A stretch of 64,000 nucleotides of DNA from an uncultured Opitutales bacterium (GCA_900546565.1 URDC01000001.1:83796-147795); one strand, 5' to 3'. Numbered from the stretch's first letter, positions 3,262 through 14,967 are shown. Translations and numbers: made by a program. Notes: generated by a model not told the origin, from the letters alone.

Positions 3262-6200
3262 ATGGAAGAAAATAACAACACAAATCAGGCGAGAGAAATC
3301 CTTGGTTTCGACAGCGATAAGAGATTTGATTGCGTGTCCATCGGCCTTGCGTCTCCGGAGACCATTAGAGAGTGGTCGCACGGCGAAGTGAAAAACCCCG
3401 AAACAATCAATTACAGAACGTTCAAGCCCGAAGTCGGCGGTCTGTTCTGCCAAAAGATTTTCGGCCCCGTGCGCGACTACGAATGCGCCTGCGGCAAGTA
3501 TAAAAGAATCAGATTTAAGGATCAGGTTTGCGACCGTTGCGGTGTAGAAGTCACGACAAGCCGCGTGCGTCGCGAGCGCATGGGGCATATCGAACTTGCC
3601 GTCCCCGTCGCGCACATCTGGTTTTTGAAGAGCCTGCCGAGCCGTTTGGGCTTGATGCTCGATATGACTTCGAAGCAGCTCGAAGCCGTGATTTACTATG
3701 AACGCTATGTGGTGCTCAACAAGCGCAACACGTCGTTCGAAGACCGCCAATTCCTCACGGAAGAGGAATACCGTAAGGCCCGTGACGAAGGCGACGAATT
3801 CGACGCGAAAATGGGCGCGGAGGCAATCTACGATTTGCTCGCGGCCATCGACCTCGAAAAGCTCGAAACTGAACTTGTCGAGCAGATGAAAGTTACGCGC
3901 TCGAAGCAGATTAAAAACAAGCTTTCGAAGCGTTTGAAGCTGGTGCAGGGCTTTATACAGAGCAATTCGCGCCCCGAATGGATGATTTTGAAGGTTCTGC
4001 CCGTCATTCCGCCGGACTTGCGTCCGCTCGTCCCCCTCGAAGGCGGCAGATTCGCCACGAGCGATTTGAACGACCTTTACCGCCGCGTAATCAACCGCAA
4101 CAACCGTTTGAAGTCGTTGAAGGCGATGAAGACGCCCGACGTTATCTTGCACAACGAAATGCGTATGTTGCAGGAATCGGTCGACGCTCTGTTTGACAAC
4201 GGCCGCCACGGCAGACCCGTCACGGGCGCGGGCAACAGGGAGCTGAAAAGTATTTCCAGTATGCTCAAAGGCAAGCAGGGGCGTTTCCGCCAGAACTTGC
4301 TCGGCAAGCGCGTAGACTATTCCGGGCGTTCGGTTATCGTTATCGGGCCGGATTTAAAGCTCAACCAGTGCGGCTTGCCCAAGAAAATGGCTTTGACGCT
4401 CTTCGAACCGTTCATTATCCGCCGCTTGAAGGAACTCGGCTTTGTGCACACTGTCCGCAGCGCGCGCAAGATGATTGAAAAGAAGTCGCCCGAAGTTTGG
4501 GATATTTTGGAGGAGGTCACGAAAGGCCACCCCGTTATGCTCAACCGTGCGCCGACTTTGCACCGACTTTCAATTCAGGCGTTCGAGCCCGTGCTTATAG
4601 AAGGCGATGCCATCCGCTTGCACCCCCTCGTTTGCGCGGCATACAATGCGGACTTCGACGGCGACCAGATGGCTGTCCACGTTCCGCTTTCAATCGAAGC
4701 GGTTATGGAGGCGAAGCTTTTGATGTTGGCAAGCAACAACATTTTCTCGCCCTCGTCGGGCAAGCCTATTTTGACGCCTTCGCAGGACATTATTTTGGGC
4801 GTTTACTTCCTCACCTACGAGCCGAGCTTGAAGAAGGAAAAAGGTCAGCGTGTTCCCTTGTTGGCGTCTTTGCGCGAAGTTTTGGGTGCACACGCCGAAG
4901 GCATGCTGCACTGGCACGATTGGATTGACTATGTCAACCCCGACTATGGCAAGGAAACGCTCCACGGCGATGCGACAAAGAAGATTATCCGCACGACCCC
5001 AGGCCGCGTTATCTTCAACACCATTTGGCCCGAAAAAATGGGCTTTGTAAACGCGCTCGTCCCCAAGGGCAAGCTCTCGGAATTGATTTTGGACACGTTC
5101 AACATCTGCGGCAGAACGGGCAGTGCGCCCGTGCTCGACAGAATGAAGACTTTGGGCTTCCGCACGGCTACGCTGGCGGGTATTTCAATCGGTATCGGCG
5201 ACATGAACATTCCCGCCGAGAAGAAGGACATTATTGCCGCCGCCCGCGCGAAAATCAAGGCTGTCGAAAACGAATACAGTATGGGCACTATCACCAAGGG
5301 CGAACGTTCCAACAAGGTTATCGATATTTGGAACGTCGCGACCGAGGAAATCGCGAAAAAGGCGTTTGAAAATCTCGAAAGGGTTCCCGAAAAGACGTTC
5401 GGCCGCCAGCACATCAACCCCGTTTACGTTTTGATGAATTCGGGTGCCCGCGGTAACAAGGCTCAGGTTCGCCAGCTCTGCGGAGCACGCGGTTTGATGG
5501 CAAAGCCCAACGGCGAAATTATCGAACGTCCTATTTTGTCTTCGTTCCGCGAAGGGTTGAGCGTTCACGAATACTTTATTTCGACGCACGGCGCGCGCAA
5601 AGGTTTGGCGGATACGGCTCTTAAAACCGCCGACGCCGGTTATATGACCAGAAAACTTTGCGACGTCGCTATGGACGTAATCATTGCAGAGGAAGACGAC
5701 GGCAACCGTGACGGTATCACGAAACGCGCGATATTCGACGGCGACGACGAAATCGTGCCGTTGCGCGACAGAATTATCGGACGCTGTTCGAGCAAGGACA
5801 TCGTCGACCCGACAAATCCGTCGCAGTTCATCGTCCGCGCGGGCGACATCATCACAGAGGAAGACGCCAAGAGAATCGACTTTGTGGGCATAACCGAAGT
5901 CAAGGTTATGAGCCCGATTACGCACCTCAAACGCAACTCGATTTCGGCGAGGGCATACGGTATCGACCCGTCGACGCAGAAGCTTGTGGAGCGCGGCACG
6001 GCTGTCGGTATTATCGCGGCTCAGTCAATCGGCGAGCCGGGCACGCAGCTTACGATGCGCACGTTCCACGTTGGCGGTGTTGCGCAGGCTGTCAAAGCAC
6101 CCGAAATCCGCGTAAAGCACAGCGGTATTATCCGTTATGAGGGGTTGAGAAGCGTTCAGTTGAATTATCAGGACCCCGCAACGGGCAAACCCGCTTCGAC

Positions 6201-8641: not shown

Positions 8642-10798
8642 ATGGCAAACTTATCTGAAAAAAATTCGCCGAACAGGGTCAAGCCCTTGGAATACACGAG
8701 AAACATCGGTATTTCGGCGCACATCGACGCGGGCAAAACAACTTGCTCGGAACGTATATTGTTTTATAGCGGCGTAGTCCACAAGATTGGCGAAGTTCAC
8801 GAAGGCACGGCTGTCACAGACTGGATGGAGCAGGAACGCGAACGCGGCATAACCATTACGTCGTCGGCTATCACTTGCAACTGGAAGACCAAAGACGGTC
8901 CGTTCAAGGGTATCGAACACCAGATCAACCTCATCGACACCCCTGGACACGTCGACTTCACCGCCGAAGTTGAACGTTCGCTGCGTGTTCTCGACGGTGC
9001 AATCGCGGTATTCTGCGCGGTCGCGGGCGTCCAGCCCCAGTCCGAAACGGTTTGGCGTCAGATGAACAAGTACCACGTTCCCCGCATTGCGTTCATCAAC
9101 AAGATGGACAGAACGGGCGCGGACTTCTACGGCGCGGTCGAAGACATCAAAACAAAGCTCAGCGGCAATCCCCATCCGTTGTTCCTCCCCATTGGCGCGG
9201 AAGACCAGCTCAAAGGCCTGATAGACCTCATTGCGATGAAGGCCTATGTCTATGACGAAAACGACCCGCAGGGCGTCAAGTACGACACCGTTGAAATTCC
9301 CGCCGAATACAAGGAAAAGGCGGAACAATACAGAGCCGAACTTATCGAAGCCATTGCCGATTTCGACGACGGCATTATGGAAAGATTCCTCGAAGGCGAA
9401 ACAAACTTCACGGAAGACGAACTCCGCTTGGGCGTTCGTAAGGCTACGTTGTCGCTAAACTTCGTTGGTGTTGTTCCCGGTTCGGCGTTCAAGAACAAGG
9501 GCGTTCAGATGTTGCTCGACGCGGTTGTCGACTACCTCCCCAGTCCGCTCGATGTTCCCCCGATTAAGGCTTACGGCGAAGACGACGAAGACACGCCCTC
9601 GCTGGAAATCGTCCCCGACGACTTCGCGCCTCCGACGGCTTTGGCTTTCAAATTGTGGTCCGACCCGTTCGTCGGCAAACTCGTATTTATCCGCGTATAC
9701 AGCGGCTGCATAAAGAAGGGTATGACAATTTACAACCCGCGTTCGCGCAAAACCGAACGTATCTCGCGCTTGCTCGTTATCAAGGCGGACAAGAGGGACG
9801 ATATCGAAGAGGCATACTCGGGCGCAATCTGCGCGATTATCGGCGCGAAGGACATCGTAACGGGCGACACTCTCTGCGACAGAGACCACGAAGTCCGTCT
9901 CGAACCTCCGACATTCCCCGAGCCGGTTATCGCTATGAGCATTGAGCCCAAGAGCAAAGCCGACCAGGAAAAGCTATCGATTGCCTTGCAGCGTTTGGCG
10001 GAAGAAGACCCGACGTTCGTCGTCACGACGAATCAGGAAACGGGGCAGACGCTTATCGCAGGTATGGGTGAGTTGCACCTCGATATCATCAGAGACCGTC
10101 TTTTCAGAGAGTTTAAGGTCGAAGCAGACTCGGGCAAGCCCCAGATTGCTTACAGGGAAACGATTACCAAGAAGGCGCACGGCGTCGGCAAATTCGTCCG
10201 TCAGTCGGGCGGTCGCGGTCAATACGGCCACGCGGAAATCGAACTCGAACCGCTCGAAAAGGGCAAGCACTACGAATTCGTCAACGAAATTGTCGGCGGC
10301 GTAATCCCGAAGGAATACATCAAGCCGACGGAAGACGGTATCAAGGAAGCTATGATAAACGGCGTCGTGGCGGGGTATCCTGTTGTGGACGTCAAGGTTC
10401 GCTTGGTATTCGGTTCGTTCCACGAAGTCGACTCTTCGGAAATGGCGTTCAAAATGGCGGGTATTTTTGCCTTCAAAGACGCTATGAAGAATGCGAACCC
10501 GATTTTGCTTGAACCGATTATGAAGGTTGAAGTTACGACTCCGAACGAGTATCAGGGCGACGTTATGGGCGATATCAACCGCCGTCGCGGACAGGTTCAG
10601 GGTATGGAAACGAAGGGCAACGATACAATCATCAGAGCTTTCGTTCCGCTCGAAACAATGTTCGGCTACGCTACGGACATTCGCTCGCTTTCAAGCGGCC
10701 GCGCTTCGTATTCGATGGAACCGAGCCACTTTGAACAAGTTCCCGCGGCAGTCTTGAAGCAAGTTCAGGAAGGCGCCGCGCGCAAAACACAAAGATAA
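8642..10798 (+). CDS. fusA: elongation factor G
   Basis: 718 aa with the GTPase G-motifs ([21 protein letters not shown]) and an EF-G domain IV/V-like C-terminus. Confidence 0.95.
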
Positions 10799-10821: not shown

Positions 10822-11130
10822 ATGGCTACTCAGAGAATTAGAATAAAGCTCAAAGGCTATGACTTCCGCACGATAGACCAAAGCGCGGGCGAAATTGTCG
10901 AAACGGCTAAAAGAACAGGAGCGAGAGTCTCGGGCCCCGTTCCGCTTCCGACGAAAATCGAAAAATATTCGGTGAATCGTTCGGTTCACGTCGACAAGAA
11001 GAGTATGGAGCAATTTGAATTGCGCACGCACAAGCGTTTGATTGACATTGTTAATCCTACGCCCAACACGGTTGACGAGCTTAAAAAGCTCAATCTCCCC
11101 AGTGGTGTTGACATTACAATCAATGTATAA
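10822..11130 (+). CDS. rpsJ: 30S ribosomal protein S10
   Basis: 102 aa beginning [14 protein letters not shown]..., a typical S10 (NusE). It follows fusA after 23 nt with no tuf gene between them. Confidence 0.94.
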
Positions 11131-11139
11131 TTGATTGTA

Positions 11140-11440
11140 ATTCCTGAGGTGTGGCGTGGATTGAATTTTCCTGCTACGCCTCTTAGCTCTCCGAGGTGTG
11201 GCGTGGATTGAATTTCCCTGTTATGCCTCTTAGCTTTCCGAAGTGTGGCGGATTTTTTATTTCCCGTCCGGCTTCTGACTCTCTGAGGTGTGGCGAGGAG
11301 TTAAGTTCCCTGTCGCGCTTTGGTGCGGAGGAGAGCGCGGCGATGGTTTAAGTTCCGTGTCGCGCTTCGGTTCTGAGGAGAGTGTGGCGGATTTTATATG
11401 CGCCGAGTTCTCGTTCGGATTGGCGGTGTGGATTTTTTTC
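11140..11440. repeat. degenerate tandem-repeat array of ~46-48-bp units with core GAGGTGTGGCG(T/A)GGATTGAATTT(T/C)CCTG
   Basis: The GTGTGGCG core recurs at ~11149, 11197, 11243, 11288 and 11382, with a degenerate copy at ~11424. Neighbouring units share 35-40 of 48 nt. It sits in the 750-bp rpsJ-rplC spacer. Confidence 0.8.
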
Positions 11441-11879
11441 GCGCAGCTGATTTGGAGAGGCGGAAGTTCTTTTTAGCTGGTGTGCACGAATTGGCTTTGA
11501 TTTTTGCAAAGTCGGAGGCGTGTATGTTTGCTTTTCGGCGTGAGCCTCGGTGGAAATCGGGCTTGTGTCTTATACATTTTTTACAAATTTTGGCGTAAAT
11601 TTTTTGAAGCATCTGTTCGGGATTTTTCCCAAAAAGAGCAGAGAACCGAAAAGTTTACGCGATATTTGTCGAAAAATTTTGCTAAAAACAAAAAAATTTG
11701 TTGACAGGGTTTATGTTTTTATCAACATTGTGCCCTTTACAAATTTTATCAACCAAAACAACTAAAGCAGGTTTAAAGGGGTTTGGCATTGTAGAAACTC
11801 TCCGAAAGGGTGCGGACAAACTGTTGTTCGGCTGAAATCGGGGTTTTGAAGATGTGAAATTCCGCCTGCCGCTTAGAAA

Positions 11880-12521
11880 ATGAGTCAAATACTAATAGGT
11901 AAAAAGCTGGGTATGACCCAGATTTTTGACGGAGACAACAGCCTTGTCGCTGTTACTGTCGTTGAGGCAGGTCCGTGCCCCGTCACACAGGTAAAAACAG
12001 CTCAGAGCGACGGATATGAAGCCGTCCAGATTGGCTTCAATGCGCAGAAAGAACAGCGTATGTCGAAGTCCTCGCTCGGGCACTTAAACAAAGCGGGTGT
12101 GTCTCCCGTAACTGAATTGGTCGAATTCCGCGTCGACAACGCTTCGGAATTTAAGGCTGGGGACGTTATGACTGTCGCGAAATTTGCGGAAGGTCAGATG
12201 GTCGACATTATCGGCACAACAAAAGGTCGCGGTTTTCAGGGCGTAATGAAGCGTCACAACTTCGACGGTCAGCCCGAAACGCACGGCCATATGATGCACC
12301 GTCGTCCCGGTTCGGTCGGCTGCCGCCAGACTCCTGGCCACGTCTACAAGGGTAGAAAGATGCCCGGTCATATGGGCCAAGTTCGTTGCACGACGCAGAA
12401 CCACGCTATCGTAAAAATTTTGGAAGACAAAAACATTCTCCTGATTAAGGGAAGTCTCCCCGGTGCGAAAGGCGATATGGTTATCGTCCGCACGGCTAAG
12501 AAAGTCAAGAAAGCACAATAA
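11880..12521 (+). CDS. rplC: 50S ribosomal protein L3
   Basis: 213 aa beginning MSQILIGKKLGMTQIFDG..., a typical L3. Confidence 0.94.
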   Translation: MSQILIGKKLGMTQIFDGDNSLVAVTVVEAGPCPVTQVKTAQSDGYEAVQIGFNAQKEQRMSKSSLGHLNKAGVSPVTELVEFRVDNASEFKAGDVMTVAKFAEGQMVDIIGTTKGRGFQGVMKRHNFDGQPETHGHMMHRRPGSVGCRQTPGHVYKGRKMPGHMGQVRCTTQNHAIVKILEDKNILLIKGSLPGAKGDMVIVRTAKKVKKAQ

Positions 12522-14631: not shown

Positions 14632-14967
14632 ATGGCTCGGCTGGGCAAAGTTTTGTTTTGTTTGATTTTTTCAAGCGCGATGGGCTTTGCCGAGTCTCCC
14701 CGTTGGATAACGAAAGACAACTGTTATAATCCCGAAAACGCGGGAAGGGTGGTCGAAGTTATCGCGGGCGAAAACGCCGACTTGGTGGTTATAGATACGG
14801 GCTTTAAGGGCAATATGCGCATAGGCGCGGTTTGCACTGCAAAGAATCCCGACAAGACAACGGCGAAAGTCGTGGTGGTCGAGGCAACCGAAGACGAAAG
14901 TATCGCACTTATAATTACCAACGCAGAAATACAACAGGGAGCTGCCGTTCATATTACAGCAAACTAA
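14632..14967 (+). CDS. hypothetical small secreted protein (~111 aa) inserted between rpsS and rplV
   Basis: The ATG at 14632 lies 1 nt after the rpsS stop and is in frame with the tabulated ORF 14563..14967. The N-terminus MARLGKVLFCLIFSSAMGFA-ESP resembles a signal peptide. I recognise no known family. The ORF exactly fills the ~350-bp gap between rpsS and rplV. Confidence 0.55.
   Translation: MARLGKVLFCLIFSSAMGFAESPRWITKDNCYNPENAGRVVEVIAGENADLVVIDTGFKGNMRIGAVCTAKNPDKTTAKVVVVEATEDESIALIITNAEIQQGAAVHITAN

Follow-up and report, generated by a model that had tools for sequence, protein, structure and literature searches.

We analysed a 64,000-nt stretch of DNA from an uncultured Opitutales bacterium (GCA_900546565.1, URDC01000001.1:83796-147795; hereafter the window), in which a long spacer that carries an array of degenerate tandem repeats separates rpsJ, encoding ribosomal protein S10, from rplC, encoding L3. 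The genes around the spacer are arranged in the order rpoB, rpoC, rpsL, rpsG, fusA, rpsJ, then the gap, then rplC, rplD, rplW and rplB. An earlier note on this DNA, made from the sequence alone, had placed rpsJ 23 nt past fusA and far from rplC, and our coordinates agree: fusA occupies 8642-10798, rpsJ follows after a 23-nt gap, and the rpsJ-rplC spacer covers 11131-11879, or 749 bp. The 3′ part of the spacer was also described correctly as AT-rich, with a GC fraction of 0.33-0.37 over 11500-11800. The features that we assign to the spacer and its borders are collected in Table 1.

The L3 protein places the window among uncultured gut Opitutales (Verrucomicrobiota); its nearest sister species has an L3 that is 96% identical and an EF-G that is 98% identical, and named relatives include Candidatus Merdousia and the cultured Puniceicoccaceae Marseille-Q1082 (locus L018). 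For comparison we used 40 Opitutae loci (L001-L040) and 40 loci of other Verrucomicrobia (L041-L080). The rpsJ-rplC gap is 16-30 bp in most loci of other Verrucomicrobia, ~136-223 bp in most other Opitutae and 288-506 bp in the closest clade; a gap of 749 bp is unusual for the phylum. Contigs from ENA ERZ653849 and Logan SRR6028210 carry the same spacer, letter for letter, and because an identical spacer recurs in independent assemblies the array is not an assembly artefact. In the index of the assembly collection, exact copies of the S10 protein are listed in 133 blocks. Variant spacer alleles occur in GCA_902462905.1 and ENA ERZ15609977. The two variant alleles of the same species are designated L083 and L084 and, together with the window, make up the three alleles compared below.

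Table 1. Genes and spacer features at the rpsJ-rplC boundary, numbered from the first nucleotide of the window
Feature	Position	Strand	Evidence and remarks
rpsJ (S10)	10822-11130	+	Open reading frame and Pfam PF00338; last gene of the rpoBC-rpsL-rpsG-fusA-rpsJ block
Perfect 12-bp palindrome (ATTACAATCAAT / ATTGATTGTAAT); loop holds the rpsJ stop codon	11113-11141	+	Fold −12.2 kcal/mol, z −2.9
Five tandem units (starts 11146, 11193, 11240, 11285, 11328; 43-47 nt)	11146-11374	+	Repeat finding, alignment, folding, covariance model
Two further degenerate hairpin units (11375-11413, 11414-11454)	11375-11454	+	5′ arm of GAGAGTGTGGCG type; folding
Two unrelated G/U-rich hairpins, not unit-like	11455-11536	+	Nearly identical in all three alleles
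Terminator-like element: 14-bp hairpin (11537-11569), then UUAUACAUUUUUU	11537-11582	+	Fold −16 kcal/mol; terminator scan flags 11546-11571
Element c, 68-nt clade-conserved hairpin	11593-11660	+	Covariation and folding
A/T-rich tract with A-runs, directly 5′ of the −35 box, UP-element-like	11661-11700	+	Sequence; same place in all relatives, including rearranged loci
Sigma-70-type promoter: TTGACA (11701-11706), 16-nt spacer, CAACAT (11723-11728)	11701-11728	+	Conservation
Conserved CTTTACAAATTTT after a G+C-rich stretch past the −10 box	11735-11747	+	Kept in all close relatives
rplC 5′ leader	11762-11876	+	Motif conservation, folding; window fold −43.6 kcal/mol, z −3.8
rplC (L3)	11880-12521	+	First gene of the rplC-rplD-rplW-rplB-rpsS... 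operon

Tandem hairpin units in the spacer

The array spans 11146-11454 and consists of five clear and two more degenerate tandem units of 39-47 nt, with individual lengths of 47, 47, 45, 43, 47, 39 and 41 nt. The five to six tandem units of 46-48 bp described in the earlier note are real as an array, but they are more degenerate than that description implied. Tandem Repeats Finder reported just 2.2 copies of a 47-nt unit (11146-11250, 91% matches), and a repeat search returned three copies (11146, 11193 and 11285) together with a second pair at 81% (11292/11339). The 28-nt core quoted in the note occurred twice at three or fewer mismatches, with 0 occurrences expected. In-register alignment gave five good units, the fifth beginning at 11328/11332.

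Each of the five units is a G·U-rich hairpin: its 5′ arm reads GAGGTGTGGCG, and its 3′ arm, TGCTACGCCTC or a similar sequence, is variable. The 5′ arm, GAGGUGUGGCG, is nearly invariant and pairs with 3′ arms that differ from unit to unit (UGCUACGCCUC, UGUUAUGCCUC, CGUCCGGCUUC, UGUCGCGCUUU and others), and the differences among the 3′ arms largely preserve G-C, G·U or A-U pairs. The two degenerate units fold at −14.3 and −16.5 kcal/mol, respectively, on the + strand, compared to −8.8 and −2.5 kcal/mol on the − strand, and substitutions in L083 and L084 make their stems perfect.

Because the unit lengths are not multiples of three, we ruled out a coding array, and eight open reading frames in the spacer had no Pfam match. 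The array is not a CRISPR array, as the note had also argued: the units are contiguous, and the start-to-start distances of 47, 47, 45 and 43 nt equal the unit lengths, leaving no spacers. DnaA boxes or iterons were likewise rejected, as no cluster of them was found in the array.

Strand-specific folding of the array

The region from 11100 to 11600 has a predicted folding energy of −202.8 kcal/mol (z −7.7) on the + strand, compared to −107.4 kcal/mol (z −2.0) on the − strand. For single units the predicted energies are −12 to −23 kcal/mol (+ strand) and −2.5 to −11 kcal/mol (− strand); the array region as a whole is G+T-rich. This asymmetry speaks against a role as double-stranded DNA, and because the + strand is the transcribed strand of rpsJ we read the array as RNA in the rpsJ 3′ untranslated region. 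In the alignment of units, 89% of cells paired in register, compared to 42-63% when the partner was slid out of register, and 13 of the 14 pairs varied. All units of L084 fold as well, with z scores for its diverged half of −3.5 on the + strand and −1.1 on the − strand.

Distribution and strain variation of the array

A covariance model built on the unit matched only the window array and its counterparts in L083 and L084. The model recovered L084 units that had been left out of model building with E values of 8e-7 to 5e-4, and it found nothing further, either in the rest of the 64 kb or in the corresponding loci of 21 relatives. Neither the nearest sister species nor any other relative to which the unit model was applied has the array; sister species have quite different G+C-rich hairpins at its position. 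Comparison of the spacer across related genomes therefore identified no relative outside the species in which the units are conserved, a result that, by the criterion set for refutation in the note, counts against a conserved function.

What relatives do have at this place are terminator-type hairpins, located 15-20 nt past the rpsJ stop codon and in several cases followed by a U-run (by eye; L007, L008, L010, L012, L014 and L016). The best non-self match of the unit model, at a non-significant E value of 2, was the terminator hairpin of L008 (GGCGCGGATTG...). From the presence of terminator hairpins at this position in relatives, together with the weak L008 match, we infer that an ancestral rpsJ terminator hairpin was duplicated in tandem, in place, and so gave rise to the unit.

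The two variant alleles differ from the window in distinct ways. L083 has the same number of units as the window, and its array differs at 16 of 416 positions (3.8%), a value close to the 3.4% divergence of fusA fourfold-degenerate sites. In the downstream segment with the hairpin and promoter, by contrast, only one of 219 positions differs, which points to constraint on the stretch from the hairpin through the promoter to the leader. In L084 the array is longer by one unit, and divergence from the window reaches ~35% in the first five units, compared to 8.3% at fusA fourfold-degenerate sites, whereas the 3′ half of the L084 array and all sequence past it are nearly identical to the window. 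As the divergence of L084 is concentrated in the 5′ half, this half of the array turns over by unit-level events in the manner of a minisatellite.

Putative 3′ end of the rpsJ transcript and the conserved hairpin

The rpsJ stop codon lies in the loop of a palindrome that borders the array (Table 1). All 12 bp of this palindrome are kept in L083 and 11 of the 12 in L084; the nearest sister species lacks it and shares only TAATTG. The array units form hairpins without U-tracts; the terminal element at 11537-11582 has a U-rich tail. Judging from this hairpin and tail, 11537-11582 is a putative 3′ end of the rpsJ transcript. Relatives carry a hairpin and TTTTT(T)nACAG at the matching place, just 5′ of the conserved hairpin described next (by eye).

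The outer stem of element c is 14 bp long (GCGYAAAUUUUUUG / CCGAAAAGUUURCGC); inside it lie an internal loop of conserved sequence (AAGCAUC / GAGAAC) and an inner stem that covaries and has a variable tip. Across 14 species, 8 of its 20 predicted pairs have changed on both sides, and the outer stem has no broken pair. In the window it folds at −30.2 kcal/mol (z −6.2) on the + strand and at −20.3 kcal/mol (z −3.5) on the − strand, and it contains U·G pairs that are workable on the + strand only. Element c had no Rfam match. We rejected the possibility that it is a canonical terminator, as its tail (GAUAUUUGU) is too U-poor.

A 12-mer, TTTACAAATTTT, occurs twice in the spacer, at 11580-11591, just 5′ of element c, and at 11736-11747, 3′ of the −10 box in the predicted start region of the rplC transcript; it may represent a duplicated start region or a shared signal.

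The rplC promoter

The TTGACA hexamer that the earlier note had reported at 11701 lies at 11701-11706 and matches the −35 consensus at all six positions. In ~25 genomes, including L011 and L021-L026, the pattern TTGACA/T-16-CAnTAT keeps both hexamers and their 16-nt spacing and varies in the spacer sequence. It is present in every close relative, and it is kept where rplC has become detached from rpsJ (L011 and L021-L026), so that promoter and leader travel with rplC. The version in L016, TTGACT-16-CATTAT, was called by a promoter scan. We infer that the A/T tract at 11661-11700 serves as an UP-like element. Transcription is predicted to start at ~11735-11740, where the equivalent sequence reads CTTTACAAA. 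With a leader motif that abuts the start codon (see below), these patterns of conservation support the proposal, made in the note, that rplC and the genes after it would be expressed from a promoter and leader of their own.

In L011 and L021-L026 there is no rpsJ within 4 kb upstream of rplC; the upstream genes in L011 are folD and a transporter gene. The promoter regions of several relatives form covarying inverted repeats (L004, 128-165; L001, 3831-3865; L016-L019, ~3842-3875), such as GGCTTCG...CGAAGCC around the −10 box in L004 and TGYCC-TTTC-GGGCA between the −35 and −10 boxes in L016-L018. Inverted repeats of this kind are unusual for a plain promoter, and the region could also act as RNA in read-through transcripts.

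The rplC leader

The leader ends in a clamp, CUAAnGCAGGU / CCUGCCnCUUAG, followed by 3-6 nt and the AUG. The clamp is formed by P1 (CUAA/UUAG, 4 bp), a 1/3 internal loop and P2 (GCAGGU/GCCUGC, 6 bp); a 5′ bulge ending in AAA(C) follows, and P3 stacks onto the 3′ arm below an apical domain that varies. In the window the 3′ arm, CCUGCCGCUUAG (11865-11876), ends 3 nt short of the AUG. The clamp covers the 12 nt that precede the AUG, the position expected for the ribosome-binding site.

We found the clamp motif in all Opitutae loci (L001-L040) with complete upstream sequence, and it covers the ribosome-binding region; L039, which is cut off at a contig end, was not part of this count. The motif is also present in loci with a 147-nt spacer and no promoter. 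Unconstrained folding gave the same architecture in ~30 of 34 distinct leaders of 44-186 nt, and covariation was seen in P3 and the apical stems only. The motif was absent from all 40 loci of other Verrucomicrobia, and we rejected on these grounds the idea that it had been relocated from upstream of rpsJ. Rfam searches, run for the window at both permissive and gathering thresholds, gave nothing relevant at E values up to 10 for the window and up to 0.5 for eight relatives; matches to STnc150 and DapZ were far below the gathering scores and were discarded. The leaders listed in a survey of ribosomal-protein leaders include no Verrucomicrobial rplC leader, and the nearest analogue there is an archaeal (Archaeoglobi) L4 candidate upstream of rplC-rplD-rplW-rplB (PMC7247131).

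By analogy with known leaders, the most likely role of this one is to allow feedback repression of translation by a protein encoded in the operon, and L4 is, by precedent, a candidate ligand. In the loci with a rpsJ-rplC spacer of ~147 nt (L027-L040), a second (A)CGCAGGTC motif lies ~60 nt 5′ of the 5′ arm of the leader, ~100-120 nt upstream of rplC. This motif could be an alternative partner for the ACCUGCC arm, which would make a two-state leader. A possible pairing of 11458-11469 with the leader 3′ arm was not found consistently in relatives (by eye), and we treated it as chance.

A probable composite boundary between two operons

We consider it probable that the spacer is a composite operon boundary, made up of a tandemly duplicated zone of 3′-untranslated-region hairpins with a role in termination, insulation or RNA stability, a conserved hairpin, an independent promoter and a clamp leader. 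The ~440 nt at 11146-11582 would be the 3′ untranslated region of the rpoBC-str-rpsJ unit. A hairpin-bearing unit of ~47 nt at the position of the rpsJ terminator would have been duplicated in tandem, and the copies would have diverged mostly by changes that preserve G-C, G·U and A-U pairing on the + strand. The outcome would be a strain-variable string of seven to nine stem-loops that closes with the terminator-like hairpin and its U-run. Stem-loops of the REP, BIME and SMAG families change the stability of upstream transcripts (PMC3184786), and because of this analogy we propose that the stem-loops of the array may be generic RNA barriers, rather than a sequence-specific binding array, that block 3′-to-5′ exonucleases, stabilise the end of the rpsJ mRNA and also slow or stop read-through into the downstream promoter. 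Element c could be a processing, termination or protein-binding element. The A/T tract and TTGACA-16-CAACAT would start the rplC operon independently, and the 5′ leader of ~140 nt would close with the Opitutae-wide clamp, burying the 12 nt before the AUG.

Judging from the loci compared, in Opitutae rpsJ has been handed to the str operon and the rplC operon has acquired a lineage-specific leader with a clamp over the ribosome-binding region; the rplC operon of the gut clade has gained, in addition, its own promoter and the conserved hairpin upstream of it.

Several observations weigh against the composite boundary or parts of it. The repeat units have no U-tracts and hence are not canonical terminators. 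The −10 box of the window, CAACAT, matches the Escherichia coli consensus at only three of six positions, and for this reason the promoter scan makes no call there. P1 and P2 of the leader never vary, so their pairing is without covariation support. Mimicry of rRNA by the leader was not established either, as comparison with E. coli 16S and 23S rRNA gave one near match only: an 11-mer at position 2374 of the 23S rRNA (CGAAAGCAGGU; L089) that matches the leader 5′ arm with one mismatch. By our own estimate ~0.09 such matches are expected, and we take this one as chance; the region around position 2374 is not known to be a contact site for L3 or L4. The remaining points concern the array and are those on which its main rival explanation is based.

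This rival holds that the array is a neutral variable-number tandem repeat, in which replication slippage and unequal crossing-over amplified a hairpin segment of intergenic DNA under little constraint, and in which the units, having no function, can still fold only because they come from a hairpin and have G/U-rich arms; we regard it as a possible account, though not the likelier one. The array is limited to one species, its unit number and sequence differ between strains, and its point substitutions accumulate at about the neutral rate (see the L083 comparison above) and, in that comparison, at equal density in stems and loops, a pattern consistent with selection that is weak or absent. Moreover, shuffling of alignment columns already gives 86% pairing because the G/U-rich arms pair promiscuously; such arms tolerate transitions, and pairing would persist for some time without selection. 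All of these comparisons of selection are based on three alleles. Other results are not readily explained by a neutral repeat, however. The folding bias toward the + strand is strong, the 5′ arm is nearly invariant, and changes in the 3′ arm preserve pairs. Pairing survives seven of the ten stem substitutions between the window and L083, and at least one of the changes that separate the strains is doubly compensatory, from U-A to C-G in unit U1 of the window compared to L084. Finally, the ~35%-diverged units of L084 are more structured than window units subjected to 30-35% random mutation (p ~0.01-0.04). Thus, there is moderate evidence for selection on hairpin formation. The loops and tails of the units are not conserved between strains, and nothing in the three alleles points to selection on their sequence.

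The lack of conservation in loops and tails also bears on a second alternative, in which the array is a set of sequence-specific binding sites, either a relocated L4-type element or a decoy that titrates the leader repressor or NusB-S10. A 9-mer, GCCTCTTAG (equivalent to GCCUCUUAG), occurs in units U1 and U2 (11178-11186 and 11225-11233), is identical to the consensus 3′ arm of the rplC leader in the clade (TGCCTCTTAG), and is found nowhere else in the 64 kb, where 0.13 occurrences are expected. The unit tail bears a loose resemblance to boxA (CGCUCUUA), and the gene just before the array encodes S10 (NusE). The 9-mer is present in only two of the seven units, however, and is lost in L084, which has CCUCUCGG and CUUCUGGG; in addition, the array lies 5′ of the conserved promoter, it is absent from the other species examined, and no Rfam leader matches. 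We therefore regard a binding-site array as highly improbable, and more improbable again is the specific version in which the array is a tunable module whose leader-like or boxA-like tails act as decoys for the rplC-leader repressor or NusB-S10. If that version were true, unit number and sequence would set the balance of S10 against L3 and L4, giving ribosomal-protein feedback that is tuned by copy number. The suggestion in the earlier note that the array might be an L4-type leader or a protein-binding array is not borne out, given the position of the array in the rpsJ 3′ region upstream of the promoter, its absence from relatives and its variable loops.

The same note had offered a decayed insertion as a further possibility. 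The units resemble REP and BIME elements in being imperfect palindromes that lie in transcribed DNA outside genes (PMC3184786), and a perfect 12-bp palindrome lies at the 5′ edge of the array, features that might be expected of the remnant of a mobile or dispersed repeat of the MITE, REP or BIME kind. However, the unit model found no second copy in the window or at the loci of the 21 relatives, and a scan of JGI metagenome contigs with the unit pattern returned nothing but one unrelated palindrome on a 562-kb contig, which we regard as a chance match. The same scan of viral contigs, and blastn of 11131-11600 against phages and plasmids, gave no matches. We detected neither terminal inverted repeats nor a target-site duplication flanking the array, and relatives have a hairpin at the same site. 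An inserted element is less probable than either form of the binding-site proposal. Least probable of all is a CsrB/RsmZ-like sponge, or a small RNA derived from the 3′ untranslated region, that offers GGA motifs to a CsrA-type protein. The array is a series of stem-loops with 14 GGA motifs in 430 nt compared to 8.3 expected (p ~0.01), but this enrichment is modest and inflated by the repeats themselves, the motifs lie mostly in predicted stems rather than loops, and the array is not conserved in other species.

Additional observations at the locus

Contigs L004 and L013 begin (position 1) in or beside the spacer, L004 exactly at the 5′ edge of element c, which suggests that assemblies of other genomes, too, break in the variable region. 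Within the S10 operon, an open reading frame of 111 amino acids lies between rpsS and rplV (14632-14967, + strand). Its N-terminus resembles a signal peptide (MARLGKVLFCLIFSSAMGFA), and it has no Pfam family on record. Among the Opitutae loci L001-L040, tblastn located it at this position in 32, with an identity of 67% in L001 and ~30% in the most distant locus, and it therefore evolves much faster than its ribosomal-protein neighbours.

Comparison with known systems

As a new instance of a type of feature already known, the array holds modest interest. Its tandem units, polymorphic in copy number and sequence between strains, are those of a minisatellite. REP/BIME elements and SMAG elements of E. 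coli, Salmonella and Stenotrophomonas are similar in being clusters of imperfect stem-loops in transcribed extragenic DNA 3′ of a gene, and they work on RNA, affecting both read-through and how stable the upstream transcript is (PMC3184786). Those families are dispersed, have hundreds of copies and are associated with transposases, whereas the present unit is confined to one locus in one species, and its stems are G·U-rich and specific to one strand. Mycobacterial MIRUs are tandem units of ~40-100 bp that lie between the genes of operons, point in the direction of transcription and have copy numbers that differ from strain to strain. The array in the window is likewise tandem and strain-variable, with one extra unit in L084; unlike MIRUs, which are found at ~40 loci and often contain short open reading frames overlapping the flanking genes, it is a single locus with unit lengths that are not multiples of three and no conserved open reading frame. 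It resembles intrinsic terminators in its site, where relatives have terminator-type hairpins, and in its terminator-like last element (11537-11582), but differs in having repeated units without U-tracts. The array itself carries little weight, as a terminator-region hairpin that appears to have grown into a strain-variable, G·U-rich minisatellite within an essential gene cluster, although strains of this uncultured gut Opitutales species could be typed by it.

The leader and element c are, by comparison, candidate new RNA motifs. To our knowledge, no ribosomal-protein feedback leader of this kind has been described in the phylum. Neither motif is in Rfam, and both are testable candidates for feedback control by a ribosomal protein. 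The closest precedents for the leader are the E. coli S10 leader, which mediates L4-dependent attenuation and translational repression, and the Archaeoglobi L4 leader. Compared to these, there is no sequence or covariance-model match, rpsJ lies outside the operon that would be regulated, and L4 is a candidate ligand. In common with both, the rplC leader of Opitutae is a structured leader before an operon that encodes L3, L4, L23 and L2, and the Archaeoglobi candidate, like the one described here, precedes rplC (PMC7247131).

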